Positions 2,925 through 54,471 of a DNA stretch of 64,000 bases are shown piece after piece. Position 1 is the stretch's first letter. Every line of letters begins with the position of its first letter. Location: the UHGV virus genome UHGV-1373362; one strand, written 5' to 3'. Both the position numbers and the translations under genes were made by a program. The notes beneath the pieces were generated by a model. The model was given only the letters and a program-made list of their open reading frames with translations, was not told where the DNA came from and ran no database searches. Origin of the DNA: a virus.

Positions 2925-3572
2925 ATGATAAATCTTAACAAAGACCTAGTAGCAGGAGGTCGTATCAACCTTAGTAAGGATGATAACGGCAATGCCCTTA
3001 CTCGTATCTTCTTTGGTGCTAACTGGGGAATGATCAACAAGGGTGGTGGATTTTTGGGATTTGGTAGTAGTAAGGAGAAGGTTGACTTGGATAGTTCAGC
3101 GGTATGTCTGGATGAAAATAAGAGACCCATTGAAACTATATCTTATTACCATTTACGTGCTAACAACAACTCTATCTTCCATTCTGGTGATGATAGAGGT
3201 GGTGATGAATTTGATGATGGATGTGACAATGAAACTATTACGGTAGATTTACCTAATGTAGATTCTCGTGTTCATCATATTGTCTTTATTCTCAATAATT
3301 ATACTCAACAGAAATTTGAAAAGCTCCCTTATATGGGCTTGAGAATTTATACTACTGCTAATGGTAAAATTTCCAGACGTATTAGTGATGAGGGAACTAT
3401 CTTGGCACAAGTTAAGCTAGATCCTAAATCTGATAAGTATATTGGGAAAAAGGGAATTATTCTTGGCGAGGTGTATCGTCATAACGGTGAGTGGAAGTTC
3501 AAAACAATTGATGTTACCGGAACTTGGGGTTCAATTGGAGAAATCACTAGAGAACTTCCTTCCATTATCTAA
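2925..3572 (+). CDS. TerD-family paralog
   Basis: Same domain pattern: GGRINLSKDD, HSGDDRGGDEFDDGCDNETITVDL, GEWKFKTIDV. A second TerD-like copy placed in tandem. Confidence 0.65.
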   Translation: MINLNKDLVAGGRINLSKDDNGNALTRIFFGANWGMINKGGGFLGFGSSKEKVDLDSSAVCLDENKRPIETISYYHLRANNNSIFHSGDDRGGDEFDDGCDNETITVDLPNVDSRVHHIVFILNNYTQQKFEKLPYMGLRIYTTANGKISRRISDEGTILAQVKLDPKSDKYIGKKGIILGEVYRHNGEWKFKTIDVTGTWGSIGEITRELPSII

Positions 3573-3993: not shown

Positions 3994-6489
3994 ATGAATA
4001 CAGTAGGATTAAGTGATAATGAAGTATTACAGAGTAGGAACCTTTATGGTTCTAACATACTAACTCCACCTAAAAGAGACCCCTGGTATATTCTTCTATT
4101 AGAGAAGTTCAAAGATCCTCTGATAGAGATCTTATGCGTTGCAGCTATAATTGCATTAATATTAGGTATAATCAAGCTAGAGTTTGAGGAACCTATAGGA
4201 ATTATTCTTGCTATATGTTTAGCTGTAGGAATGGGATTTTTGAATGAGTGGAGTGCTGCCAAGAAGTTTGATATTATGAATCAAGTATCAGACGACATTC
4301 TTGTAAAGGTTAGGCGTAGTGGTCATGTAACCCAAATACCACGGAAGGATTTAGTTGTAGGAGACATAGTAATTCTAGAGTCAGGGGAAGAGATTCCCGC
4401 TGATATAAAAATACTTGAATCTCACAATCTAAGGATTAACGAGTCTGCCCTAACAGGGGAATCCAAGGCCGTTATTAAAATGTCTATAACTGAAGGAGAG
4501 AACAATGGTACATATCCTTCAGATATGGTACTTAGGGGAACTACAATTGAAGAGGGAACAGCGACAGGTGTAGTTACAGCAGTTGGTGATAAAACTGAAA
4601 TTGGCAAAACTGCCAGACAAGCTGCTGAAATTACTGATGTTACAACCCCATTAAATAAGCAACTTAATGGTTTAGCTGAACTAATAAATAAGATTGCTTA
4701 CGGCGCCGCAACCTTTCTAATTATCTCTTTATTAGTAAAGTATTTCTTTATTGAGAAGGGGTATATAGGACAAGACTGGATGCAAATAGCGAATGATATG
4801 CTATCATGTTTAATGATTGCAGTAGCATTGATTGTAGTAGCTGTACCAGAGGGTTTACCAATGGCAGTTACATTAGCTCTAGCATATTCAATGAAAAGAA
4901 TGTCTAGGGCTAATAATCTAGTTCGTAAAATGCATGCATGTGAAACTCTTGGAGCAACTACATTAATATTGACTGATAAGACTGGGACACTTACTCAAAA
5001 TAAAATGAAAGTGGTAGACTCTAATATTACTGATGATAGTTATTTAAAATATAACATCTTAGGTAATAGTACTGCTTTTATTGAAGGGGACAAGACTATT
5101 GGAAATCCTACAGAGGGTGCCTTAATAAGGCATCTTAATGTAAGCCAAGCAGGGGTTGATATTCTTAGGGAGGAATGCAAACCTGTCTATAGAGAGGAGT
5201 TCTCCAGTAAGTCCAAATACATGCTTACAGTCATTATGCGGGGTGATAGGTATATAGGTCTAATTAAAGGAGCACCAGAAGTAGTTGAAGGATTCTGTAC
5301 TGAGGTACCACTCGATGTAGATGCTACAACTCAGCAGTATCGAGGCCGACGAGTAATTGGCTTTGCCTTTAAGGTTACTGACACTCTTGAAGATGCCGCT
5401 TCCCTTACAGGCTATAACTACAATGGTTATATGGCTATTGAAGATCCTATTAGACCTGATGTCCCTGAAGCAATTAGAGCTGCGAAGAAGGCAGGCATCA
5501 AAGTTAAAATCATCACTGGAGACAATCCAACTACAGCTATAGAGATAGCTAGGCAAGCAGGATTGAGTGATTCACCACAAGGAATGGCTGGTATTGATAT
5601 GAGGAATAAGTCGAATCCATATGATTCGGTTACAGGTATTTCTACTATTGATGTCTTTGCCAGAACGAAACCTGAAGACAAGCAAACACTGGTTACAGAG
5701 TTTCAAGCTCTAGGTGAAGTGGTGGCTATGACCGGTGATGGTACTAACGACGCCCCAGCACTTAATCATGCTGAAGTGGGTATAGCCATGAATAATGGCA
5801 CCGATGTGGCTAAAGAAGCTGCTGACATTATTCTACTCGACAATTCATTCCCCTCTATCATCTTGGGAGTAAAGTGGGGTAGAAGCTTGTATAAAAATAT
5901 ACAACACTTTATTCTATTCCAATTGACCATTAACGTAGTTGCTATATTAATTGCGTGCGTAGGTCCATTTATTGGAGTGAATTTACCCTTCACTGTAGTA
6001 CAGATGTTATGGGTAAACTTAATCATGGATACATTTGCTGCACTGGCGTTAGCTACTGAGCCAGCTAACGATGCAGTTATGGAAGAAGCACCTAGAGATC
6101 CTAAGGCATTCATTATCACTAAGAACATGTGGTGGGAAATTTTAGGTAAAGGTCTCATATTCTTCTTATTCTTAACCTGGTTGCTTATAGGCGAAAAGGT
6201 TTCACTAAGCTACTTCTTTACAATATTTGTATTGTTGCAGTGGTGGAACTTATTTAATGCTAGAGTATTTGGGCAAAAGAGAAGTATCTTTGATGGCTTA
6301 CTAAAGAATCCTGCATTTATAGGAATCTCTTTAGTTATTTTAGTAGGTCAATTCTTAATAGTGCAATTTGGTGGAGATATGTTCCGTACAGAACCTATTC
6401 CTCTAAATCATTGGGGTTTACTAATAGCAGGAACTTCAATAGTAGCTATATTTAGAGAATTGAAATATCAAATAAGCAAAATCTTTTGA
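3994..6489 (+). CDS. P-type cation-transporting ATPase (P2-type, Ca2+-ATPase-like)
   Basis: DKTGTLT phosphorylation motif, TGES-like actuator region, PEGLP in TM4, TGDN, and the GDGTNDAPAL hinge; about 8 or more TM helices. Confidence 0.9.
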   Translation: MNTVGLSDNEVLQSRNLYGSNILTPPKRDPWYILLLEKFKDPLIEILCVAAIIALILGIIKLEFEEPIGIILAICLAVGMGFLNEWSAAKKFDIMNQVSDDILVKVRRSGHVTQIPRKDLVVGDIVILESGEEIPADIKILESHNLRINESALTGESKAVIKMSITEGENNGTYPSDMVLRGTTIEEGTATGVVTAVGDKTEIGKTARQAAEITDVTTPLNKQLNGLAELINKIAYGAATFLIISLLVKYFFIEKGYIGQDWMQIANDMLSCLMIAVALIVVAVPEGLPMAVTLALAYSMKRMSRANNLVRKMHACETLGATTLILTDKTGTLTQNKMKVVDSNITDDSYLKYNILGNSTAFIEGDKTIGNPTEGALIRHLNVSQAGVDILREECKPVYREEFSSKSKYMLTVIMRGDRYIGLIKGAPEVVEGFCTEVPLDVDATTQQYRGRRVIGFAFKVTDTLEDAASLTGYNYNGYMAIEDPIRPDVPEAIRAAKKAGIKVKIITGDNPTTAIEIARQAGLSDSPQGMAGIDMRNKSNPYDSVTGISTIDVFARTKPEDKQTLVTEFQALGEVVAMTGDGTNDAPALNHAEVGIAMNNGTDVAKEAADIILLDNSFPSIILGVKWGRSLYKNIQHFILFQLTINVVAILIACVGPFIGVNLPFTVVQMLWVNLIMDTFAALALATEPANDAVMEEAPRDPKAFIITKNMWWEILGKGLIFFLFLTWLLIGEKVSLSYFFTIFVLLQWWNLFNARVFGQKRSIFDGLLKNPAFIGISLVILVGQFLIVQFGGDMFRTEPIPLNHWGLLIAGTSIVAIFRELKYQISKIF

Positions 6490-19609: not shown

Positions 19610-20341
19610 ATGAATGTATTAGTTATACCAGTACAATCTGTTAGTGATGTAATTACTAATAGTTCCTCTGAGGTTTTTATCTTAGACACAGGAAAGACAT
19701 GTGAGGAAGTTAATAATGTCCTCAAAGGATTTACTTCAGGATTTAGATATCCAGAAGTCTTCTCGTTAAAAGATTACCGGGAATGGAGAAAGAAACTCCG
19801 CAGTGGTGAACTTGAAGAAAGCTGGGATTATCCTGGAACTATATTTGATATAGCCGATGGGTGGTTTAGGGATCCGGAAAATGAGGAAGATGTTTTAGAA
19901 TTGAGAATAGACTTCCTATTTGACCCATTTGAGACCCATGACTATGGTGATGGTTTTATAGCCCATAGCTACAGTAGTAGGTATAAGGAGCCTATTCAGG
20001 ATGCCTTTATTGATTTTCTAAATGACAACTGGGACAGAGTTGGTGAAGCTATAAATCGTGTCCTTGGTGAAGTAGATGAGGATGAAACAGATAACATTGA
20101 CTGGGGGACTCTACGTAAATATAACCACTGGTTTGAGGATGCTCTGCAGGATATTTCTAAGGAATTCTTAAAGAACTACAACGGACCTAAACCTACAGTG
20201 TGGGAGGTTAGTAAAAATGAGGATGTGAGAAGGCTAGATGGTAAGATATTGGTTGTAAGTAACGATGATAACAGTATCCCTTATGATACTTGGGATAAGA
20301 TTAATAGTTTATTTAATGGTTGGAATGTGCATTTAGGATGA
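19610..20341 (+). CDS. member A of a 4-gene paralog family with conserved N-terminal motif
   Basis: N-terminus MNVLVIPVQSVSDVITNSSSEVFILDTG; shared motif (I/L)xxQSxSD(V/I)(I/V)TNSS(S/M)E(V/T/I)(F/Y). Acidic, variable C-terminal body. Confidence 0.55.
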   Translation: MNVLVIPVQSVSDVITNSSSEVFILDTGKTCEEVNNVLKGFTSGFRYPEVFSLKDYREWRKKLRSGELEESWDYPGTIFDIADGWFRDPENEEDVLELRIDFLFDPFETHDYGDGFIAHSYSSRYKEPIQDAFIDFLNDNWDRVGEAINRVLGEVDEDETDNIDWGTLRKYNHWFEDALQDISKEFLKNYNGPKPTVWEVSKNEDVRRLDGKILVVSNDDNSIPYDTWDKINSLFNGWNVHLG

Positions 20342-20841
20342 TATTTAAACTGCAATCTTTAAACGATGTAGTAACTAACAGTAGTATGGAAGTCTATCAA
20401 GAGGCTACACAATACACTGTTGATGCTATAAAAGATATTATTAATGTAATTTTAAAGATTAGTGGTTCAGATAAGTCCTGTGACGACTTATTCACCGTTA
20501 GTATTAACTATGAGGATATGCTTGAGTCATATTTCGAAGACATCCTTGATAAGTCCGATATTGATGAGGAATATCTAGGTATGATTGAAGAAATCAGAAG
20601 TCGTAAAGATGACTCTGGACGGTTTATCAGTGATTCTGAAGCATATGCTGAATTAGTTAAGACTGGTTTAGTGGGTGATGTAGTACCTACCATTGAGGAA
20701 TATGTTAGGAACTTTGATAGTGATTGGAGATATCCAACTACTGAGGTGTCTATAATTCCTAAGGGTGAAGCAGAGCGTTCTGACATTGCCATACTAAACA
20801 AAATAAATGACTTATTCTGTGTCGAAGCGTGCTACAACTAA
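20338..20841 (+). CDS. paralog B of the conserved-N-terminus family
   Basis: MIFKLQSLNDVVTNSSMEVYQEAT; ATG at 20338 overlaps the upstream TGA (ATGA). Confidence 0.5.
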   Translation: MIFKLQSLNDVVTNSSMEVYQEATQYTVDAIKDIINVILKISGSDKSCDDLFTVSINYEDMLESYFEDILDKSDIDEEYLGMIEEIRSRKDDSGRFISDSEAYAELVKTGLVGDVVPTIEEYVRNFDSDWRYPTTEVSIIPKGEAERSDIAILNKINDLFCVEACYN

Positions 20842-21271
20842 GTACTACTTAATACCAATTCAGTCATTCTCCGACATTATAACTAATAGTTCTTCTGAAA
20901 CTTATATCGTTGATACTTCCTATACTGCCAAAGCACTAGAAGAGGTATTAGAGGGAATACACAAGAAATATGAGGGCGAAGAGTTCTATTCTGGAGAATG
21001 CTGTGGTATTGAAGTAAGCGATTATAAGGAATATTGTAGAGAAGCCTATATGTGGGAAGAATGTGATGAGAATGGAACTCCATTTACATCTAAGGAAGAC
21101 TATATAGCATGGGTGTTCGAAGTTCCTTTAAGTATTGCTAAAGAGTGTCTAGTTGTTAGGGTTGATTATGGCTATAGCTATGTAGATGAATTTTTAAATA
21201 AGAATTTCAAATGTATAGCATCTGACCATGAAAGAATTAAAGTCCCAGACGGGTGTATTATTAAGTATTAA
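20807..21271 (+). CDS. paralog C of the conserved-N-terminus family
   Basis: ...YYLIPIQSFSDIITNSSSETYIVDTSYT; overlaps B by 35 nt. Confidence 0.5.
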   Translation: MTYSVSKRATTKYYLIPIQSFSDIITNSSSETYIVDTSYTAKALEEVLEGIHKKYEGEEFYSGECCGIEVSDYKEYCREAYMWEECDENGTPFTSKEDYIAWVFEVPLSIAKECLVVRVDYGYSYVDEFLNKNFKCIASDHERIKVPDGCIIKY

Positions 21272-21545
21272 TATCCAGTCATTCTCTGATGTAATTACTA
21301 ATAGCTCTTCGGAGATATTCTGTACTATTACAGGAGACGATTTGGATGCTATTTACCAGCTTTTAAAACCACTATTCCCATCAGTGTATGGTTATTCCGA
21401 TATGGAACCTACACTACATATGGAAGGTAATGTTGTAACATTATGGCTTCCTTATGGCGAAGCACCAACAGAGTTCTATAAAGCAGGTCTAGAAGCAATA
21501 CTTGATAAGCACTTTAAAGATAATTATATAATAGAGTACGAATGA
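21228..21545 (+). CDS. paralog D of the conserved-N-terminus family
   Basis: ...LLSINIQSFSDVITNSSSEIFCTITG; overlaps C by 44 nt; stop overlaps the radical-SAM start. Confidence 0.5.
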   Translation: MKELKSQTGVLLSINIQSFSDVITNSSSEIFCTITGDDLDAIYQLLKPLFPSVYGYSDMEPTLHMEGNVVTLWLPYGEAPTEFYKAGLEAILDKHFKDNYIIEYE

Positions 21546-22465
21546 AAGATTGGACAAGCTGGGGAACTAAGGTAAGAGAGTTTCCTGCATACAATTATAA
21601 GGCTATATGGGGTAATCTAAAGACTATTCGAGTAGGTACTGGAGTAGCTAAGGAGTTACCTCCTGATATGGCTGAATTTTATGATGTTGGTATTAATACT
21701 GTATGTAATGCTGAATGTGATTTCTGTTATGTATCAGCAGGACATGGTGGTATTAACTATCCTGACATATGTGAAACATGGGAGAAATGGATGCACATAT
21801 ATGAATCTAAAATGGAAGATGGCGTATTATATACTAGTAAGCCATTTCAGATTGCTATTGGTTCAACTGGTGAACCTACTATGCATCCAGACTTCTGTAA
21901 GTTCCTCGAAACAGTATATAATACTGGAGTAGTACCTAATTACACCACTAATGGTCTTATATTAGCTAGAGACAATGTTAAGGGAGGAGAAATCCTTGCC
22001 TATACTAAGGAATATGTTGGTGGAGTTGCAGTTAGCTTGGGTAATCCAAGTATCAGACTCCAAGCACATAGAGCTATTAATAAGCTATTAACGTGGGGTA
22101 ATACTAATGTAAATGTTCATCATATTATATCTGATAAAGTATCTGTAGATGAATTCTATGATACTGTACTTAGGTATGGTAATAGCATTTACTATCATGT
22201 ATTGTTGCCTTTAATGCCTTCTGGAAGAAGTAGTAAGGGTATTGAGCCTGGTGTGTTTGAATATTTAGAGGATGTAATTCAAGAACATGATATAAAGAAT
22301 GCAGCGTTTGGTGCACACTTTGTAGAATACTTGAAAACCTCTAAGATCAAGACACATCTCTATCCACCTGAATCGTTAAGTAAGAATGTTATTCTTACTA
22401 AGGATAAGGTACAAATTACTCCAAGTTCCTTCAATCTTAATCCTATAATGACTATTAATTTATGA
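21542..22465 (+). CDS. radical-SAM enzyme
   Basis: CNAECDFCY gives the CxxxCxxC [4Fe-4S]/SAM cluster motif; GSTGEPTMHPDF is a GGEP-like SAM-binding motif. About 300 aa. Confidence 0.7.
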   Translation: MKDWTSWGTKVREFPAYNYKAIWGNLKTIRVGTGVAKELPPDMAEFYDVGINTVCNAECDFCYVSAGHGGINYPDICETWEKWMHIYESKMEDGVLYTSKPFQIAIGSTGEPTMHPDFCKFLETVYNTGVVPNYTTNGLILARDNVKGGEILAYTKEYVGGVAVSLGNPSIRLQAHRAINKLLTWGNTNVNVHHIISDKVSVDEFYDTVLRYGNSIYYHVLLPLMPSGRSSKGIEPGVFEYLEDVIQEHDIKNAAFGAHFVEYLKTSKIKTHLYPPESLSKNVILTKDKVQITPSSFNLNPIMTINL

Positions 22466-22896
22466 GTCTACCTATTGATTGGGAACTATTAGGGTATGTG
22501 AAAGGGTTATTTTCATTTAGTACAGATAGAATACAATCCATCTCTAGGGAGGATGGTAAGCTATTTATTGCTACTGACGATGATAGACGCTTTATACTGA
22601 AACTAGTCGAAATTGGTCCAGTTATGGAGAAGTTTAATAATAATATAGGTGAGCATCAAACACTCTTCTATATTAATCCAGAAACTAAAGAACTAGTGTT
22701 TAGGAGTAAGACTGCATATGAATCAGAGAAAGAAGCTATTCATGCTGCTATGGTTATTAATGTGCAGGATAAAACTATTCATAAAAGACAGGCTTATAAG
22801 TGTAGCGTGTGTCATAAGTGGCACGTAGGTAGAGGGAAAACCATACTCACAGATGAAGACAAAAGGAAACTTAAAATTAAGCATAACATTCAATGA
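22462..22896 (+). CDS. hypothetical protein
   Basis: ATGA overlap; C-terminal CSVCHKWH. Confidence 0.4.
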   Translation: MSLPIDWELLGYVKGLFSFSTDRIQSISREDGKLFIATDDDRRFILKLVEIGPVMEKFNNNIGEHQTLFYINPETKELVFRSKTAYESEKEAIHAAMVINVQDKTIHKRQAYKCSVCHKWHVGRGKTILTDEDKRKLKIKHNIQ

Positions 22897-23131: not shown

Positions 23132-23632
23132 ATGAGAATTGGACTAGATATAGACGATTGCTTGGCAGACTTTTGGGGGGCATATTGCAAATATTTTGAT
23201 GTAAAGAACAACCCTAAAATGCTTCAAGACCACATTATTACGCGTAATGTTCAACAAGTATTAAGCAAGGACAGGGACTTCTGGTTACAACTAGAAGTAA
23301 TTAATTTTCCAGACTTTATTCCAGAACTATATTGTACTAAAAGAGTCAATAATAAGGCATGGACTAGAGAATGGTTAAGAATAAATGGATTCCCTGACCG
23401 ACCTATATACCAAATGGTTTATCAGCATGGAAACAAAGCTGACATGATCAGAGGTAGAGTTGATGTATTCATCGACGATTCACTTAGCAATGTTTTAAAA
23501 TGTAATAAGTCTGGGGTTCCAGCCTTACTGTATCATACAGAGAGGACTAAGGACTTCCCAATGTATAAGGTATATTCTCTCGATAAAGATAGTATATTAG
23601 AGGCATACACGTTTATGCGTCAGTATGCATAA
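23132..23632 (+). CDS. 5'(3')-deoxyribonucleotidase (HAD, NT5C-like)
   Basis: MRIGLDIDDCLADF matches the NT5C motif I (DxDxV/LADF); a second aspartate motif VDVFIDDS lies near the C-terminus. Confidence 0.65.
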   Translation: MRIGLDIDDCLADFWGAYCKYFDVKNNPKMLQDHIITRNVQQVLSKDRDFWLQLEVINFPDFIPELYCTKRVNNKAWTREWLRINGFPDRPIYQMVYQHGNKADMIRGRVDVFIDDSLSNVLKCNKSGVPALLYHTERTKDFPMYKVYSLDKDSILEAYTFMRQYA

Positions 23633-25405: not shown

Positions 25406-25960
25406 ATGTTTAAATTTGATTTTATTATGCAAGCAATGAATTTTAAGAGAGTAGAAGTAAAAGGTTTTACTAAACAAGAAGCTATCGATCAAGCACCTTT
25501 CCAAGTTATCCGTGATGCAACTCAGGCATGGAAAACAGCAGGTAAACCTGTAACAGAAAAGTCACTAAAAGAGTTCTGTGCAGATTATTTGTCTAAACAT
25601 ACTAAGTTTGCAGCTGGTATTGGATGTTCAATCACTATTGAGGCTGGTTCTGCCGATACAAGACAGAGACCATACACCATTATCGACATTAAGAACGAGA
25701 AGGGTAAACGTAAGTATAAAACTGGCTATCAAGGATTAAATCCTGCAACCGGAGAAGTCTTGTTTACTAATTTTGAGACTAAGACTAAAGCTAAAGAGGT
25801 AGCTAAGGAACTTTACACTAAGAAAGATTATAAGGGCGACGTATTCTGCAAGTACATCAAAGATGTAGTTGAGGGTGAGGTTGGCGCATTTGAAGTTAAG
25901 TACACTCCATCTAAGAGTGCTAATCAAGGAACTTATATCTGCTTTGGAGTTGAGGCTTAA
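25406..25960 (+). CDS. hypothetical protein, probably highly expressed
   Basis: Monocistronic unit: two promoter-like boxes upstream and a strong terminator downstream. Confidence 0.5.
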   Translation: MFKFDFIMQAMNFKRVEVKGFTKQEAIDQAPFQVIRDATQAWKTAGKPVTEKSLKEFCADYLSKHTKFAAGIGCSITIEAGSADTRQRPYTIIDIKNEKGKRKYKTGYQGLNPATGEVLFTNFETKTKAKEVAKELYTKKDYKGDVFCKYIKDVVEGEVGAFEVKYTPSKSANQGTYICFGVEA

Positions 25961-25993: not shown

Positions 25994-26036
25994 AAGGGAT
26001 TATCTTATGTGAATAAGGTAGTCCCTTATTTTTTTG
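25994..26036 (+). terminator. rho-independent terminator
   Basis: aaggga-(22 nt)-tccctt hairpin followed by a T8 run. Confidence 0.55.
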
Positions 26037-30006: not shown

Positions 30007-32085
30007 ATGCTAGTAGTAAAAAGGAATAAGACAGTACAACCCTTTGATTGGGGTAAAGTGGATTTAGCTATTACTAAGGCATTCCATGCAGTTAATGAAC
30101 CTATTGACATGGAAATACTTAGTGACATTAAAGATGAGTTATACTTCAACAATATTATATCAGTAGAAGAAATACAAGATCAAATAGAGAAAGCTCTAAT
30201 GGCTTGTGATTATTATAATGTTGCTAAAGCATTCATCTTATACAGACATAAGCAAACAGAGCTTAGAAAGTTAACCAGTAAGAAACAATTTATTAAAGAC
30301 TACGCTAACGCAAGTAACGCTGCAACTGGTAGTAAGTATGATTCAAATGCTAATGTTACTGAGAAGAACATTGTAACTTTAAATGGTGAATTGTTCAAAG
30401 GTGACATTATTAAGGTAAATCGCACTATTCTTACTGATAAGATTAGAGAAATGTATGGTGAGGATTTAGCTAAGGAATATATCCGTCAGCTAGAATCTCA
30501 TGAACTATATAAACATGATGAGACTAGTATTATGCCATATTGTGTGGCTATTACTATGTATCCATTCTTGTTGGAAGGTTTGCAGCCTATTGGAGGTTTA
30601 TCTGCAAAACCCAAAAACTTGGATTCATTCTGTGGTATGTTTGTAAATCTAGTATTTGCAATCAGTTCACAGTTTGCTGGTGCAGTAGCCACTGGTGAGT
30701 TCCTAATGTATTTCGATTATTTTGCTCGTAAAGAGTGGGGTGAAGATTATTGGAAACGTCCAGAGGAAATGGTTGATAAGCATAGAAATATTGACAAGAC
30801 ACTGGAGCAGAAATTCCAACAGATTGTATATTCAATTAATCAGCCTGCTGCTGCTCGTAACTTCCAATCAGTATTCTGGAATATAAGTTACTTTGATAAG
30901 TATTACTTTGAGGGATTATTTGGGGAATTTGTATTCCCTGATGGTAGTAAACCTCAATGGGATTCATTAAACTGGTTACAGAAGAAATTCATGAGCTGGT
31001 TTAATGAAGAGCGTACTAAATGTATCTTGACATTCCCTGTCGAAACTGTGGCATTACTTACTGATGGCGAGGATATTCGTGATAAGGAATGGGCTGACTT
31101 CACTGCTGAAATGTATAGTAAAGGGCATTCTTTCTTTACTTATACTTCTGATAGTGCAGATTCGTTATCTTCTTGTTGCAGACTAAGGAATGAGGTTACT
31201 GATAATCAATTTTCCTATTCATTAGGTGCAGGTGGTATTGCTACTGGTAGTAAGTCAGTAATGACTTTAAATATCAATAGGTTAGTACAGGATGCAGTTA
31301 ATAAGGGATATGATATGATTGATTATTTAAGATCTCAGGTTCAGAAGGTTCATAAATATCAAACTGCATATAATGAACTGCTAAAGGACTATCTAAATAA
31401 TGGATTATTGACCGTTTACACAGCTGGGTTCATAAACCTACAAAAACAGTATCTTACTGTTGGAGTTAATGGTGTTATTGAAGCTGCTGAGTTCTTAGGA
31501 ATTAAAGTCAATGATAATCCTACTTATAGAGAGTTCATGCAGTCAATTCTTAAAACTATTAGTGATGAGAATCGTAAAGCTAAAACCAAAGAGTTAATGT
31601 TTAATACTGAATTTGTACCTGCTGAAAACTTAGGAGTTAAACATGCTAATTGGGATAGAAAGGACGGTTACGTTGTACCAAGGGATTGCTATAATAGTTA
31701 CTTCTATGCAGTTGAAGATATGTCTCTTAGTGTGCTTGATAAATTTAAATTACATGGAAAGGCATATGTAGAGAATCTAGATGGAGGTAGTGCCCTTCAT
31801 ATGAATCTGGATGAACATCTTACTAAAGATCAATATAGAAACCTGCTACGAATTGCAGCTACTAATGGTACCAATTATTTTACATTTAACATCCCAAATA
31901 CCATCTGTAATGACTGTGGGCACATTGATAAAAGGTACTTGCATGAGTGTCCTAAATGCGGAAGCAAGAATATAGATTATGCAACTAGAGTTATTGGATA
32001 TTTAAAGAGAATTAGTAACTTTAGTGAGGCCAGACAAGCTGAGGCTAAGAGAAGGTTTTACACCCCTAATACTAATGAGGTATGA
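30007..32085 (+). CDS. nrdD: anaerobic ribonucleoside-triphosphate reductase
   Basis: N-terminal ATP-cone (VVKRNKTVQPFDWGKV); C-terminal Zn ribbon CNDCGH...CPKCGS; glycyl-radical motif RVIGYLKR; 692 aa. Confidence 0.9.
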   Translation: MLVVKRNKTVQPFDWGKVDLAITKAFHAVNEPIDMEILSDIKDELYFNNIISVEEIQDQIEKALMACDYYNVAKAFILYRHKQTELRKLTSKKQFIKDYANASNAATGSKYDSNANVTEKNIVTLNGELFKGDIIKVNRTILTDKIREMYGEDLAKEYIRQLESHELYKHDETSIMPYCVAITMYPFLLEGLQPIGGLSAKPKNLDSFCGMFVNLVFAISSQFAGAVATGEFLMYFDYFARKEWGEDYWKRPEEMVDKHRNIDKTLEQKFQQIVYSINQPAAARNFQSVFWNISYFDKYYFEGLFGEFVFPDGSKPQWDSLNWLQKKFMSWFNEERTKCILTFPVETVALLTDGEDIRDKEWADFTAEMYSKGHSFFTYTSDSADSLSSCCRLRNEVTDNQFSYSLGAGGIATGSKSVMTLNINRLVQDAVNKGYDMIDYLRSQVQKVHKYQTAYNELLKDYLNNGLLTVYTAGFINLQKQYLTVGVNGVIEAAEFLGIKVNDNPTYREFMQSILKTISDENRKAKTKELMFNTEFVPAENLGVKHANWDRKDGYVVPRDCYNSYFYAVEDMSLSVLDKFKLHGKAYVENLDGGSALHMNLDEHLTKDQYRNLLRIAATNGTNYFTFNIPNTICNDCGHIDKRYLHECPKCGSKNIDYATRVIGYLKRISNFSEARQAEAKRRFYTPNTNEV

Positions 32086-32295: not shown

Positions 32296-32784
32296 ATGCT
32301 TAAATATGTAAACTACGACATAGTTTTTCAGGAGATTCCTAACGAAACTACTCTAGCTATAAACATATCTAATTGTCCATGTCATTGTAAGGGTTGTCAT
32401 AGCCCTTACTTGGCAAAGGATATTGGAACTGAACTAACATCTTATTCTCTTTTGGAATTACTTAAGAAAAATAAAGGAATAACTTGTGTAGCTATGATGG
32501 GGGGTGACTCAGAGCCACAAGAGGTAGAATATTTCTCTGAATTGGTAAGGAATATAGCTGGATTGAGATATGCTTGGTATTCTGGGAGACAGGAGCTTCC
32601 AAAGGATATAGACATATCTAAGTTTGACTATATTAAGCTAGGCCCCTACGTCGAAGAGTTAGGGGGTTTAAAGAGTCCTACTACCAACCAACGGTTCTAT
32701 GAAGTCCAAATGAGTAGAGAAATTGACGAAAATGATAACCCAATCTATGGGTTAGTAGATGTTACAGATGTATTTTGGAAATGA
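32296..32784 (+). CDS. nrdG: anaerobic RNR activating enzyme (radical SAM)
   Basis: CPCHCKGCHSP (CxxxCxxC) near the N-terminus; about 160 aa; directly downstream of nrdD. Confidence 0.85.
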   Translation: MLKYVNYDIVFQEIPNETTLAINISNCPCHCKGCHSPYLAKDIGTELTSYSLLELLKKNKGITCVAMMGGDSEPQEVEYFSELVRNIAGLRYAWYSGRQELPKDIDISKFDYIKLGPYVEELGGLKSPTTNQRFYEVQMSREIDENDNPIYGLVDVTDVFWK

Positions 32785-36371: not shown

Positions 36372-36586
36372 CCACCAGGCAGGAAATATTACTTCGTTTA
36401 GCTTGTGCTGCACTACAGGGAGGAATGTCCATTGACGAGGTGTGTGACAGTATACAAGATATTAAAGGAGATAATGATTCTTCTCTATGGGATATTGCTG
36501 ACATACTTCCATGTGTAGAATTTGATGCAGATATTCCTTCTGAGGAAGATATTGAATTAGTTACTGGCAAAAAGGATTTTTATTAG
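36368..36586 (+). CDS. hypothetical small acidic protein
   Basis: ATGA overlap. Confidence 0.3.
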   Translation: MTTRQEILLRLACAALQGGMSIDEVCDSIQDIKGDNDSSLWDIADILPCVEFDADIPSEEDIELVTGKKDFY

Positions 36587-37791
36587 TGGATATTTTAGTC
36601 AGCAAAGACAATAAGGGCAAAATTAGAGTTGTCAAGATTGACTATGAGTGGGACGATCCTAGGCATGGTTATGTTATAAGGAGAAGTACTTCTCAATATG
36701 GGGGTAAAATCACCATCCAACCTGAGATATGGGTCTTTAATGGTAAAGTAAAGAGGACTGTTACCGAACAGGTTAAACTAGAATATAACTCTCATTTAAA
36801 GAAATATCAAGATAAGGGATATAAAATATTACCATCCTCTATTCAGTTGGAGGACAGTAAAGCAGTATCCGACTTCGTTCAAGAACATATGGGCGAGGGT
36901 GTTTCAGACACTAACGGGTTTAAGAAACATATGCTGGCTAAACAGCATGATAAGGTAGCAACTTCGGTATTTGATAAAATTGAATACTGGTATGCTAGTC
37001 GTAAAATAGATGGAGTGAGATGTTCATTCTATTGGAAGGATGGAGAAGTTAGAAGTGCTAGTAGGGGTGGTGGAGCATATGACCAGTCAACTACGCATAT
37101 AAGACTTCATCCATCTGTGATTTCTTTATTCCAAAAATTTCCAGATCTAGTTTTAGATGGGGAACTTTATAAACATGGAAGATCTTTACAACAAATTAGT
37201 GGTGCTGCAAGGCTTGAGAAAAACGCAGTAGCATGTGATTGGTTGGAATATTATATTTATGATGTCATGGATAGTTCTAAATCATTCGAAGAGAGGTTAG
37301 AAATACTACATGACGTAGAAGCAGAACTTGGTATAGTTGGGTTTGATCCTAACAGAGAATACAAGGATGACATGCTTAAAGTTCAGTTAGTTCCACACGA
37401 GGAAGTAAAGGGCTGGGCTAATATACAAAAGTTACATAATAAGTATGTAGAGGAGGGGTTTGAGGGTGTTGTGATTAGAGACCCATCTAAGCCCTATAAC
37501 TTTGGCGGTAGAACTAATGCTATGATCAAAGTTAAAATGTATCAAGATGCGGAATTTAAAATCGTTGGTTATGAAGATGGGCTGCGTCCAGAAGACATGG
37601 TATTCGTATGTGAGACTGAATTAGGTATTAAGTTTGAAGCTAAACCTATGGGTCCACGTGAATTAAAGTGGGAGTACCTTGATAGAATGGATGAAATCAT
37701 TGGTAAGATGGCTACTGTAAAGTACTTCTATCTTAGCGATGAAGGATGTCCTCTGCAGCCAGTTCTGAAGTGTATTAGGGATTATGAGTAA
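36586..37791 (+). CDS. ATP-dependent DNA ligase
   Basis: Motif I SRKIDGVR (KxDGxR), III LVLDGELY, IV EGFEGVVIRD, V MIKVKMY. N-terminal ~130-aa extension. GTG start overlapping the upstream TAG. Confidence 0.8.
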   Translation: MDILVSKDNKGKIRVVKIDYEWDDPRHGYVIRRSTSQYGGKITIQPEIWVFNGKVKRTVTEQVKLEYNSHLKKYQDKGYKILPSSIQLEDSKAVSDFVQEHMGEGVSDTNGFKKHMLAKQHDKVATSVFDKIEYWYASRKIDGVRCSFYWKDGEVRSASRGGGAYDQSTTHIRLHPSVISLFQKFPDLVLDGELYKHGRSLQQISGAARLEKNAVACDWLEYYIYDVMDSSKSFEERLEILHDVEAELGIVGFDPNREYKDDMLKVQLVPHEEVKGWANIQKLHNKYVEEGFEGVVIRDPSKPYNFGGRTNAMIKVKMYQDAEFKIVGYEDGLRPEDMVFVCETELGIKFEAKPMGPRELKWEYLDRMDEIIGKMATVKYFYLSDEGCPLQPVLKCIRDYE

Positions 37792-39195: not shown

Positions 39196-40584
39196 ATGCA
39201 ATTAACTCAATCACCAAAGTTTAATAAGAATTATGCAGCAAAGATTATATGGGTCAAGGACTTTGTTAAGCATCCAAACCCTAAGTGCGAAAGATTAAAA
39301 TGTTGTATTGTTGATGGCTATTCAGTAGCAGTTAGTGTGGATACTGAACCTGGAACCTACATTTACTTCCCAGTTGAATGTGCTATCAGTGATACATTCT
39401 TATCAGCTAATAATCTGTTTAGAGATAAGGATCGTAATAAAAACAAGGAGGAGTCTGGATTCTTCGAGGATAACGGTAGAGTTAAAATTATTAAGCTACA
39501 AGGGTATCCCTCGGAAGGATTCATAGCTCCAATTACTTACTTATATAACTGGTTATCTGTTATAGGTAACTCTAATGAGATAATCAGGGCAGAAGTTGGA
39601 ACTGAGTTTGACTCAGTTGGCAATGAGCTTCTGTGTAAGAAGTATATTCCTAAGTTTTCTAAAACTCCTGCTCAAACAGGTGGCAAGGTGACTAAAAAAT
39701 TAAAGAAAGGCATTAAAAAGGTAATAGAGAAGCAGTTTAGATTTCATTATGACACCACTTTGATAAAGAAGTGTCCTAATGTTATTAAACCTGAGTCTCT
39801 ATTATCTATAACTGCCAAAGTGCATGGAACTTCTGGTATATCAGCGTATGTACTATGTACAAGACCCAAGAAGTGGTACGAGAAAGTGTTTGAATTTTTA
39901 ACTCATAGGGAAATAGATAATACTAGATATGACTATCTATGGTCTTCTCGCTCGGTAGTTAAGAATCCATACTATAATGAAACTACTAATGGAGGATTCT
40001 ATGGGGTAGATGTATGGAAGTATGCTGATGCAATAGTACGTCCATACTTAACTAAGGGCATGACTGCTTATTATGAAATTATTGGATTCCTACCCAATGG
40101 TGGTGCAATTCAGAAGTTGGGCGGTAAAGCCTATGATTATGGATTCGTGCCGCCCTGTATTCAGACTGATTATACCCCGTATGAATATGGTAAGAATTTT
40201 GGAGTGCAAATCTACCGTCTAACTTATACTAATTTGGATGGAGTAGTATATGAATTTAGTGCAAGACAAGTACAGCAATGGTGTGAAAGAAATGGGTTAA
40301 CCCCTGTACAACAATATTACTATGGCTATGCCAAGGATTTATATCCAGATTTATCTTTAGATAATCACTGGAACGAAAACTTCATGCAGAGATTAGCTAG
40401 TGATAAAAACTTTTATATGGAGTGTAACTCACCTACATGTATGAATGATGTTCCACATGAAGGGGTTGTTATTAAAATAGAAAATAGTCTATCAGAAGCC
40501 TATAAGCTAAAGTGCATTAAATTCTTGGAAAGGGAATCTAAATCGCTGGATAAAGGTGAGGTTGACATTGAAACTGAATCTTAA
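39196..40584 (+). CDS. RNA ligase (Rnl2-like nucleotidyltransferase)
   Basis: Motif I KVHGTSG (as in T4 Rnl2 KIHGTN), motif IV HEGVVIKIE, motif V KLKCIKF. Confidence 0.6.
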   Translation: MQLTQSPKFNKNYAAKIIWVKDFVKHPNPKCERLKCCIVDGYSVAVSVDTEPGTYIYFPVECAISDTFLSANNLFRDKDRNKNKEESGFFEDNGRVKIIKLQGYPSEGFIAPITYLYNWLSVIGNSNEIIRAEVGTEFDSVGNELLCKKYIPKFSKTPAQTGGKVTKKLKKGIKKVIEKQFRFHYDTTLIKKCPNVIKPESLLSITAKVHGTSGISAYVLCTRPKKWYEKVFEFLTHREIDNTRYDYLWSSRSVVKNPYYNETTNGGFYGVDVWKYADAIVRPYLTKGMTAYYEIIGFLPNGGAIQKLGGKAYDYGFVPPCIQTDYTPYEYGKNFGVQIYRLTYTNLDGVVYEFSARQVQQWCERNGLTPVQQYYYGYAKDLYPDLSLDNHWNENFMQRLASDKNFYMECNSPTCMNDVPHEGVVIKIENSLSEAYKLKCIKFLERESKSLDKGEVDIETES

Positions 40585-53057: not shown

Positions 53058-53281
53058 GAATTATTGCATTACTAATTTACCTATTAACAACAATAATAGG
53101 TATTCTTATGGGCAAGTATCTGTCTAACATGGTTGACAAGAATGACAAGCAGGAGGTACACTCATTTATTCACGTTTGCCTTATTCCTATAATTAATATA
53201 CTTGTTGTTATTGTAGGTTTATTTGAACTAGTAAATGGGATATTACATAAAATAGCAAATTATATAGAAAAATGGTGGTAA
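53048..53281 (+). CDS. small membrane protein
   Basis: Two TM helices. Confidence 0.3.
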   Translation: MVIGIIALLIYLLTTIIGILMGKYLSNMVDKNDKQEVHSFIHVCLIPIINILVVIVGLFELVNGILHKIANYIEKWW

Positions 53282-54471
53282 AATCAATTCTTGATACGGA
53301 CTTGTATAAGTTTACAACTTCGTATGCTTACATGAAGTTATTTCCCAATGCGGAGGGGACATTTTCATTTATTGATAGGGATAATACTGAATATGATGAG
53401 GAATTCATACTTATGTTGAACATGGAATTGCTAAATCTATATTCTCTGTCTCTATCCATAGAGGAGAAGGATTATATGATTGCGAACTGTAGATTTATAC
53501 CTGCTGTATATTGGGAATGGCTTAGTTCTTTCAAGTTTGACCCTTCACGTGTTGTTATAAGCCTTGATGAAAACAAGCATCTTAATATAGATGTTACGGA
53601 CAGTCTCTATAAGGTTACTTTATATGAAGTACCAATATTAGCTATAGTATCAGAAGTACGCAATGCCTGGCTAAGCAACACTCCTGATTCCGACTGGAAG
53701 CAGAGATTGTACGATAAAGTACAAATGTCCAATCAACATGCTCTACCGTTTTCAGAATTTGGAACTAGGAGGAGATTTTCTTATGAAGTACAGGAATCTG
53801 TATGTATCTATCTAAAGAGATACGCTACATTTTGCACTGGTACTTCCAATTGTTATCTAGCTATGAAATGTAGTATGAAAATGATGGGAACTCACCCACA
53901 TGAATGGTTTATGTTTCATGGTGCACAGTATGGCTACAAACAGGCTAATTATATGGCATTAGAGAACTGGGTTAACGTTTATGACGGGGATTTAGGTATT
54001 GCTTTAACTGATACCTATACATCGGAGGTATTCTTAAAAAACCTATCACGTAAACAGGCCAAGCTGTTTGATGGTGTGAGGCATGATAGTGGAGATCCCT
54101 ATAAGTTTATAAATAGAGTAATAACTAGGTATAAAGAACTAGGGGTTGATCCTGCTACTAAGACTATAATCTTCAGTAATGCCCTTACATTCCCCGATGC
54201 TTTGGAGATTATGCAATATTGTGGTGGTAGAATTAGGTGTGCGTTTGGTATAGGTACTAATCTTACCAATGATACCGGTAACAAGCCTTCTAATATTGTA
54301 ATGAAATTGGTTAGGTGCCGAATGACTAAAGCACAACCTTGGTTTAACTGCGTTAAGCTATCTGATGATTTAGGTAAGCATACTGGGCAGAAAAAAGAAG
54401 TAGAACACTGTATAAATGAATTGAGACTATGCAATGGGAGTATGACAAAATTACAGTTAAGTATGAAATGA
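53272..54471 (+). CDS. pncB: nicotinate phosphoribosyltransferase
   Basis: N-terminal SILDTDLYKFT... is characteristic of PncB/NAPRTase; about 400 aa. Confidence 0.7.
   Translation: MVVKSILDTDLYKFTTSYAYMKLFPNAEGTFSFIDRDNTEYDEEFILMLNMELLNLYSLSLSIEEKDYMIANCRFIPAVYWEWLSSFKFDPSRVVISLDENKHLNIDVTDSLYKVTLYEVPILAIVSEVRNAWLSNTPDSDWKQRLYDKVQMSNQHALPFSEFGTRRRFSYEVQESVCIYLKRYATFCTGTSNCYLAMKCSMKMMGTHPHEWFMFHGAQYGYKQANYMALENWVNVYDGDLGIALTDTYTSEVFLKNLSRKQAKLFDGVRHDSGDPYKFINRVITRYKELGVDPATKTIIFSNALTFPDALEIMQYCGGRIRCAFGIGTNLTNDTGNKPSNIVMKLVRCRMTKAQPWFNCVKLSDDLGKHTGQKKEVEHCINELRLCNGSMTKLQLSMK

Follow-up and report, generated by a model that had tools for sequence, protein, structure and literature searches.

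A conserved N-terminal tag on diverse small proteins accompanies a radical-SAM enzyme in human-gut phages

Four tandem genes of the virus genome UHGV-1373362 encode small proteins that share a conserved N-terminal peptide of 18 residues, referred to here as the tag, and are followed directly by the gene for a radical S-adenosylmethionine (radical-SAM) enzyme. Together these five genes, at positions 19610–22465 of the 64,000-nucleotide stretch that we analysed (the window), are one conserved phage module. The tag is preserved at the protein level, appears on bodies of unrelated sequence and is obligately linked to an enzyme whose predicted fold resembles that of peptide maturases. From these properties we infer that the tag docks the small proteins to the enzyme and is probably the site that it modifies, a tentative reading to which we give slightly less than an even chance.

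The tagged genes and the enzyme gene form one operon

The five open reading frames (ORFs) lie head to tail on the + strand, the four tagged proteins preceding the enzyme. Protein 1 (243 residues; 19610–20341), identified from the ORF list and the sequence, carries its tag IPVQSVSDVITNSSSEVF at 19625–19678 (tag hidden Markov model (HMM), E 9e-14); protein 2 (167 residues; 20338–20841) carries FKLQSLNDVVTNSSMEVY at 20344–20397 (E 6e-13); protein 3 (154 residues from the first ATG; 20807–21271) carries IPIQSFSDIITNSSSETY at 20852–20905 (E 4e-13); and protein 4 (105 residues; 21228–21545) carries INIQSFSDVITNSSSEIF at 21267–21320. The radical-SAM enzyme (307 residues; 21542–22465) contains the motif CNAECDFC and gives a weak match to the Pfam family Radical_SAM. 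ATGA overlaps join the stop codon of protein 1 to the start of protein 2 (20338–20341), the stop of protein 4 to the start of the enzyme (21542–21545) and the stop of the enzyme to the start of the next ORF (22462–22465), and the ORF of protein 3 overlaps that of protein 2 by 35 nt. The tagged genes and the enzyme gene are all translationally coupled and make up a single operon. A preliminary description of this region had reported four tandem tagged genes, a downstream CxxxCxxC radical-SAM gene and ATGA coupling between the last tagged gene and the enzyme, and all of these are present as claimed.

Tag and enzyme are linked in related phages

The linkage was approached from both of its sides. 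A search of IMG/VR with the enzyme protein returned 32 loci, on phage contigs mostly of 75–190 kb, and each of the 31 loci with upstream DNA has 3–6 tagged ORFs before the enzyme gene. From the tag side, the pattern ITNSSSE[VLI] returned 80 loci, 77 of which have an adjoining radical-SAM gene; in the other three the available DNA ends at or soon after the tag array. Across roughly 115 related metagenomic phage loci, 2–7 tagged genes stand beside a radical-SAM gene in every sufficiently long locus.

This association survives divergence and rearrangement. It is kept in four loci whose enzyme is only about 50% identical to that of the window (L028–L031), and in two loci with enzymes 42–43% identical (L106 and L112) the order is reversed, the enzyme gene coming first and two tagged genes after it. 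Three further loci (L121–L123) retain the pair among other neighbouring genes; in L121 and L122 the module is placed between a DNA ligase gene on one side and a 468-residue ORF, Sequestin and sigma-70-like genes on the other.

The tag is conserved as a peptide, not as a DNA repeat

In the window the tag reads h-x-h-Q-S-x-(S/N)-D-(V/I)-(V/I)-T-N-S-S-(S/M)-E-x-(F/Y) and lies near the N-terminus. Exactly four copies were found by a six-frame regular-expression scan. An HMM built from the tags of 236 distinct tagged proteins, drawn from 112 loci, likewise detects four copies with E-values of 2e-14 to 6e-13, the next best segment scoring 0.49. ORF3 and ORF4 carry 12–15 extra residues ahead of the tag, so that it is N-terminal yet not always at residues 2–5; the earlier statement that each protein begins with the motif holds for its N-terminal location in all four and fails for its exact position in these two.

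At the nucleotide level the copies have diverged substantially. The four 66-nt tag regions, aligned by codon, are 52–62% identical, and only 40–64% of identical tag residues share a codon. Across the four tags serine is encoded by AGT, AGC, TCC, TCT, TCA and TCG, and GAT/GAC and GAG/GAA also alternate. The repeat is therefore a protein motif rather than a DNA repeat, and the synonymous divergence within it points to selection on the peptide. The preliminary mention of one ~50-nt stretch repeated in all four genes overstates the likeness of the DNA. A recent segmental duplication or DNA-level repeat is ruled out by the same 52–62% identity, together with retention of the tag in related phages down to an enzyme identity of 42%.

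Conservation within the tag is concentrated in its polar core. D, T, N, S and S are invariant in all 236 tagged proteins, and the remaining positions are less fixed, with 232 proteins having Q, 225 the S next to it and 222 E. In these 222 the tag finishes with S-(S/T/M)-E, and in the other 14 the Glu is replaced; this end does not read (L/I)-x-E. There is no conserved Gly among the 236 tags, and the motif (C/S)-x-(P/A)-x-R is absent from the tag sequence.

The Glu at the end of the tag bears on one of the two models put forward at the outset, in which the tag directs diverse internal proteins to the prohead, is cut after ..S-x-E and lets the proteins be injected with the DNA. T4 internal-protein loci contain diverse tandem genes with a short common N-terminal leader, and phiKZ-type proteases follow the rule S/A/G-x-E, which the S-(S/T/M)-E of the tag would fit. 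The module thus shares with the T4 internal proteins (IPI, IPII, IPIII and Alt) and with phiKZ-type prohead protease substrates an array of tandem, fast-diverging small proteins and a short leader ending in Glu, a likeness of layout only. In the model of protein 4 described below, a cut after E29 would take just two residues, S28-E29, from the start of strand beta1, and the folded domain would otherwise stay intact. Under capsid targeting no residue should be more constant than Glu. This is not what is observed: the putative P1 position has lost its Glu in 14 of the 236 tags, D..TNSS is intact in all of them, and the invariant core of the module is D..TNSS rather than Glu. The tag also does not fit the (L/I)-x-E rule of T4. 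Nor does this model explain why the genes should be obligately linked to a radical-SAM gene across rearrangements, a linkage that sets the module apart from the T4 proteins.

The genomic setting argues in the same direction. The module lies in a replication and nucleotide-metabolism operon with primase, resolvase, nucleotidase, NrdD/NrdG and ligase genes, not among head genes, and is translationally coupled to the enzyme. Near it there is neither a protease gene nor a structural gene, the phage structural genes being outside the window, and the nearby genes scanned, a part of those in the window, included no leader protease or exporter. Linkage to the enzyme, a Glu less conserved than D..TNSS and the replication-operon setting together weaken the capsid-targeting leader to an improbable explanation.

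Tagged proteins combine one peptide with many bodies

The tagged proteins of the collected loci fall into 34 sequence classes, some of which are related to one another once the tag is removed. The four bodies of the window, compared pairwise without the tag by hhalign, give profile–profile probabilities below 5%. The bodies had been described as unrelated, and at the sequence level within the window they are, though they may share a fold, protein 4 being the one paralog modelled. Outside the window, every class has related proteins in other phages. A C-terminal likeness among all four window bodies was also considered and is not borne out by the profile comparison.

The individual classes differ in how well they are kept. 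The class of protein 1 ends in ..DNSIPYDTWDKINSLFNGWNVHLG; its orthologs are 72–97% identical and its divergent relatives retain a C-terminal ..DNSIPY..HLG motif. The class of protein 2 is homologous to body classes 6, 11, 12 and 15 of other phages, protein 3 is missing in the three-copy relatives L005, L011, L012, L024 and L025, and protein 4 represents the best-conserved class (..FYKAGLEAILDKHFKDNYIIEYE). In ORF1-like proteins a second strong motif occupies the extreme C-terminus, ..L(D/N)GKI(L/V)V(L/V)Sxx(D)N(S/T)(I/M)PY..F..I....(N/D)....HLG*, and is present even in very divergent members (P0277, P0289, P0293, P0301, P0318, P0320, P0331, P0346, P0373 and P0394). Other body classes end in ..RYHLG, ..D..Y(C/G) or ..NYxIxYE.

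Among database proteins there are also chimeras, in which the tag region of one class is carried on the body of another or two classes are joined in or near the tag (for example P0006, P0028, P0038 and P0061); P0003, P0005 and P0001 are likewise among the predicted proteins that fuse two paralog classes. These may be either recombinants or collapsed metagenome assemblies. The conserved tag may serve as a recombination point at which cassettes are shuffled or deleted, which would fit the three-copy relatives. Given the class structure, the unrelated bodies and the chimeras, the tag is a portable module carried on unrelated or extremely diverged bodies.

Structures were predicted with AlphaFold2 for monomers of protein 4 and of the enzyme. 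From 48 homologs, protein 4 is predicted to adopt a beta(28–36)-alpha-beta-beta-alpha-beta(100–104) arrangement, and its body is modelled as a confidently folded ferredoxin-like domain, the mean predicted local distance difference test (pLDDT) score of residue blocks being mostly above 90 (73–94). Residues 1–30 give 10-residue block means of only 52–58, and residues 21–26, in the middle of the tag, fall below 50. In this model the tag is a low-confidence segment ahead of a confident domain, the behaviour expected if the motif becomes ordered only on a partner.

The model also bears on a different proposal, that the tag is an integral phosphate, nucleotide or metal loop of one diverged superfamily of small alpha/beta proteins, which would bind, carry or transfer what the radical-SAM enzyme makes, such as a modified nucleotide or cofactor. 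A loop of D, T, N, S, S, S and E between beta-like segments resembles anion- and Mg-binding loops, and the ..DNSIPY..HLG motif of ORF1-like proteins could complete a site. The neighbouring primase, resolvase, nucleotidase, NrdD/NrdG and ligase genes would suit such a role, as would the N-terminal half of the enzyme, which scores best against viperin, a nucleotide-modifying enzyme. AlphaFold2, however, leaves the loop unpacked against the domain, the body classes of the window have no detectable homology to each other, natural chimeras swap tags between bodies, the distance from tag to start codon varies, and searches by family and by fold gave no known binding protein. We regard an integral binding loop as unlikely, if less so than a capsid-targeting leader.

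The enzyme resembles peptide maturases and lacks auxiliary clusters

The enzyme is a member of the radical-SAM superfamily, having both the cluster motif and the barrel with its SAM-binding motif. The cluster motif C55-x3-C59-x2-C62 (C55-NAE-C59-DF-C62) is encoded at 21704–21727, and its three cysteines are invariant in 44 homologs; a GGE-like SAM-binding GSTGEP follows at 21860–21877, and the partial TIM-barrel core is present. Beyond the cluster motif, the only cysteines conserved in these homologs are C77 (invariant) and C119 (at least 90%), with none in the C-terminal third, so a SPASM or twitch cluster is impossible. No SPASM family scored above threshold for the enzyme.

In the AlphaFold2 model (pLDDT 86.7) a three-stranded N-terminal beta extension is followed by the partial barrel and C-terminal beta-hairpins. 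A canonical recognition element (RRE) of ribosomally synthesised and post-translationally modified peptide (RiPP) systems was not recognised, the extension being three beta-strands without the RRE helices, as judged by the secondary structure of the model only. Sequence profiles match just the generic N-terminal radical-SAM half (viperin, tungsten-cofactor maturase and mycofactocin maturase), all far below family cutoffs. Structurally, the nearest solved proteins are the peptide maturases SkfB (score 18.3, 248 residues aligned) and SuiB (18.1, 253 residues). Other radical-SAM enzymes align over about 190–230 residues: BlsE (15.9, 217), GDGT-MAS (15.5, 228), viperin (15.5, 209), anSME (15.1, 219), ChlB (15.0, 225), PqqE (14.3, 210) and MoaA (14.2, 223). 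Homologs of the enzyme form 956 clusters, all of about 307 residues and all metagenomic.

Two established pairings in which a radical-SAM enzyme acts on a whole protein were compared with the module and do not match it. Glycyl-radical enzyme activases such as PFL-AE and NrdG act with a conserved Gly (RVxG), which the tag lacks. The window also encodes an anaerobic ribonucleotide reductase, NrdD (30007–32085), followed by its own NrdG-like activase of 162 residues (32296–32784; Fer4_12), and a role of the module enzyme as the NrdD activase is thereby ruled out. With this pair, the phage encodes two different radical-SAM enzymes and evidently replicates in an anaerobe. The anaerobic sulfatase-maturating enzyme (anSME) modifies a (C/S)-x-P-x-R motif that is absent from the tag and has a SPASM domain, of which the window enzyme has none.

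In several relatives the enzyme gene is interrupted by 1.2–1.9 kb at the same codon (107|108, in GS|TGEP), as in L027 (4453–6603; identical to L067) and also in L056, L088–L090, L097 and L107. The insert of L027 holds a GIY-YIG homing-endonuclease ORF (4864–5823). The precise junction suggests a mobile intron; no Rfam match to a group I intron was found in the insert.

A proposed leader-like role of the tag for whole small proteins

An invariant, portable, unstructured peptide that is tied to one enzyme is most simply explained if the enzyme binds it, and the maturase-like fold of that enzyme makes modification of the tag our leading reading. Each small protein would consist of a portable N-terminal peptide (minimally Q-S-x-S-D-h-h-T-N-S-S-x-E-h-F), unstructured on its own, and a variable body. 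The tag would be the handle by which the single adjacent enzyme recognises every tagged protein, and a radical modification would be installed in or next to the invariant D..TNSS segment. Such a scheme would apply the logic of RiPP maturases, one enzyme acting on many substrates that share a leader, to whole small proteins. As to the chemistry, the lack of an auxiliary cluster and the invariant Cys77 favour epimerisation or simple H-abstraction and oxidation over a cross-link, though this is a guess.

The module appears to work most like a multi-precursor, leader-guided radical-SAM maturase system. Like SkfB/SkfA, SuiB/SuiA and CteB/CteA, it clusters an enzyme gene with substrate-like genes that share an N-terminal sequence, four in the window and 2–7 in related loci. 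The enzyme model is closest to SkfB and SuiB and the tag is predicted to be unstructured alone, and the multi-precursor logic recalls the prochlorosins, in which one ProcM serves many ProcA with one leader. The differences are considerable. The variable parts are proteins of 80–240 residues, at least one of them folded, rather than short cores, the products having 90–243 residues and database representatives up to 259, and the conserved part is only about 18 residues long. The enzyme is without SPASM or twitch cysteines and without an RRE recognisable by secondary structure, and the module occurs only in lytic-phage-like contigs, within a replication operon. We do not file the module as a RiPP cluster, since its products are not short, its enzyme shows no SPASM domain or canonical RRE, the latter as judged by secondary structure, and the nearby genes scanned revealed neither protease nor exporter. 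The second of the two initial models, a recognition sequence for the adjacent radical-SAM maturase, is hence the better supported one, by co-occurrence from both search sides, reversed gene order, changed neighbours, the SkfB/SuiB-like model and the unstructured tag; the module is not a canonical RiPP system.

Three observations weigh against modification of the tag. Folded substrates of 80–240 residues are unusual for leader-guided radical-SAM enzymes. A shallow alignment (48 sequences), or the lack of a ligand in the model, could also account for the low AlphaFold2 confidence of the tag. Finally, the enzyme has a distant homolog in Klebsiella phage KP15, KP15_135 (L116, 90116–91318), and no tagged gene lies within 6 kb of it or in the first 50 kb of KP15 (the other 124 kb were not scanned), so the enzyme family can work without this tag.

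Much of the evidence would be accommodated almost as well if the tag were purely a docking device, bringing proteins to the enzyme as adaptors or subunits. Their bodies would either regulate the enzyme or recruit host proteins, nucleic acids or small molecules as targets, and the radical chemistry would be performed on the target so recruited. F-box proteins provide a parallel, combining a shared docking motif with variable substrate-binding domains. Linkage, modularity and invariance apply here alike; the bodies diversify fast and number 2–7 per locus, as target-recognition modules would, and the enzyme family, which in T4-like phages lacks tagged partners, may act on a separate substrate. 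Yet when polar residues such as D, T, N, S and S are this invariant, a docking strand is a less typical setting than a site that reacts or is tightly recognised; no body suggests a target or matches a known domain; and for the proteins structurally closest to the enzyme, the peptide bearing the recognition sequence is itself the substrate. We consider such adaptors the most credible of the alternatives, at a little under half the probability that we attach to a tag that docks and is modified.

As the tagged proteins are presumably early-expressed and are diversifying, the matured products are likely host-directed effectors. More specifically, and with somewhat less confidence than in the docking and modification of the tag as such, an enzyme free of auxiliary clusters may, in a system widespread among gut phages, mature a diversifying arsenal of small folded proteins through a universal tag of 15–18 residues, installing a radical modification (for example a D-residue or an oxidised Ser, Thr or Asn) needed against the host. 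If the enzyme does modify the tag, the module would represent a new class of post-translational maturation for viral proteins, supply a short, portable recognition sequence for a radical-SAM enzyme that could be useful in enzyme engineering, and offer an entry point to the action of early phage proteins on anaerobic gut bacteria.

Distant homologs of the enzyme in cultured phages

Radical-SAM proteins of the T4-like phages (KP15_135, RB43, Miro and Lw1) and of Vibrio phage D479 are true, distant homologs of the window enzyme. The T4-like proteins align with it at an hhalign probability of 97%, with 27% identity over 206 residues that include the N-terminal beta region. They are about 400 residues long with a Cys-rich C-terminal extension, unlike the window enzyme, and the D479 protein has the motif CX7CX2C. 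Distant relatives of the enzyme sit in 184 cultured T4-like phage genomes (184 GenBank records), where they are annotated only as hypothetical or radical SAM.

In Vibrio phage D479 (L113) the homolog is encoded at 4857–6062, and two genes upstream, at 3098–3496, lies a look-alike of the tagged proteins, MKIRNGFVSNSSSSSF.., with a weak hhalign probability of 21%. This 132-residue ORF starts MKIRNGFVSNSSSSSFVIT and ends IKYEYERF, a weak likeness to the tagged family. Extending the family through the MKIRNGFVSNSSSSSF protein was dropped in view of that probability and of the lack of relatives in a set of 5.8 billion proteins and among GenBank phages.

The D479 protein reads NGFVSN|SSS, which would suit an explanation in which N-S-S is an autocatalytic site, through Asn cyclisation, an N-to-O acyl shift or Ser-Ser serinolysis giving an N-terminal pyruvoyl group as in PanD and histidine decarboxylase. 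The segment xSD(I/V)(I/V)TN|SS resembles intein block G (Ssp DnaB ..NDIIVHN|S), and a short N-terminal segment followed by Ser resembles pyruvoyl proenzymes. Neither a Hint domain nor a partner fragment of the intein N-terminus was seen, there is no penultimate His, the predicted fold of protein 4 is ferredoxin-like and not that of a pyruvoyl enzyme, and self-processing leaves no role for the radical-SAM enzyme. Both the intein-like and the pyruvoyl variants were set aside as without supporting evidence, and self-processing is the least probable of the explanations.

An undescribed family found in metagenomes

The tagged family and its radical-SAM module are undescribed and metagenome-only, the phage being uncultured and the source samples human gut metagenomes. 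A profile of the tag alone (36 columns, from the four window copies), run against 1.84 billion proteins, retrieved 1,213 representatives (50% identity); the best 150 of these are 36–259 residues long, and their tag starts within the first 32 residues. The proteins that bear the tag are accordingly among the larger uncharacterised groups in human-gut phages. With a profile of 14 paralogs, over 4,163 clusters (90% identity) were matched; none of the 120 clusters listed for it carries a Pfam domain or an informative name, the only source names being 'hypothetical protein'.

The motif had been said to belong to no described family, and wider searches agree. The tagged proteins of the window have no Pfam, PHROG, NCBIfam or PADLOC family match, the 31 class representatives have no Pfam match, and no homolog of the tagged proteins occurs among 50,697 GenBank phage records. 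A literature search for the motif string returned no paper, and one on phage radical-SAM/RiPP systems or the KP15/RB43 enzyme found nothing relevant. From 185,579 species-representative genomes the module is essentially absent, with matches only in two fragments of metagenome-assembled genomes (1.8 and 2.8 kb), whose bins hint weakly at Clostridia as hosts; a bacterial or prophage origin is accordingly unsupported.

Genes around the module

In the window the module is flanked by primase and resolvase genes on one side and, on the other, by a run of small ORFs and then a PD-(D/E)XK nuclease gene. Within the subset of window genes scanned, the neighbours with a family match are the primase, a RusA-like/PD-(D/E)XK resolvase and the PD-(D/E)XK nuclease; the ORF at 23132–23632 looks HAD-like by eye and, like the remaining scanned neighbours, is without a significant match. 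In L118–L120, whose enzyme is 71% identical, an ADP-ribosylglycohydrolase (PF03747; 11220–12026) is encoded two genes downstream of the enzyme, in the position taken in the window by an unrelated ORF of 144 residues (22462–22896). In L028 the primase frame is split into two ORFs about 300 nt apart (2245–2643 and 2953–3294), which may reflect another insertion or a frameshift.

The whole window is a single long + strand replication and nucleotide-metabolism block without tRNA genes, and further along it encodes an ATP-dependent DNA ligase (36586–37791), an RNA ligase (39196–40584) and a nicotinamide phosphoribosyltransferase-like protein (53272–54471). Downstream of the module, a strong terminator-like hairpin (25994–26027; 15 pairs, then a T run) follows the ORF at 25406–25960 and is probably where the long transcription unit with the tagged genes ends.

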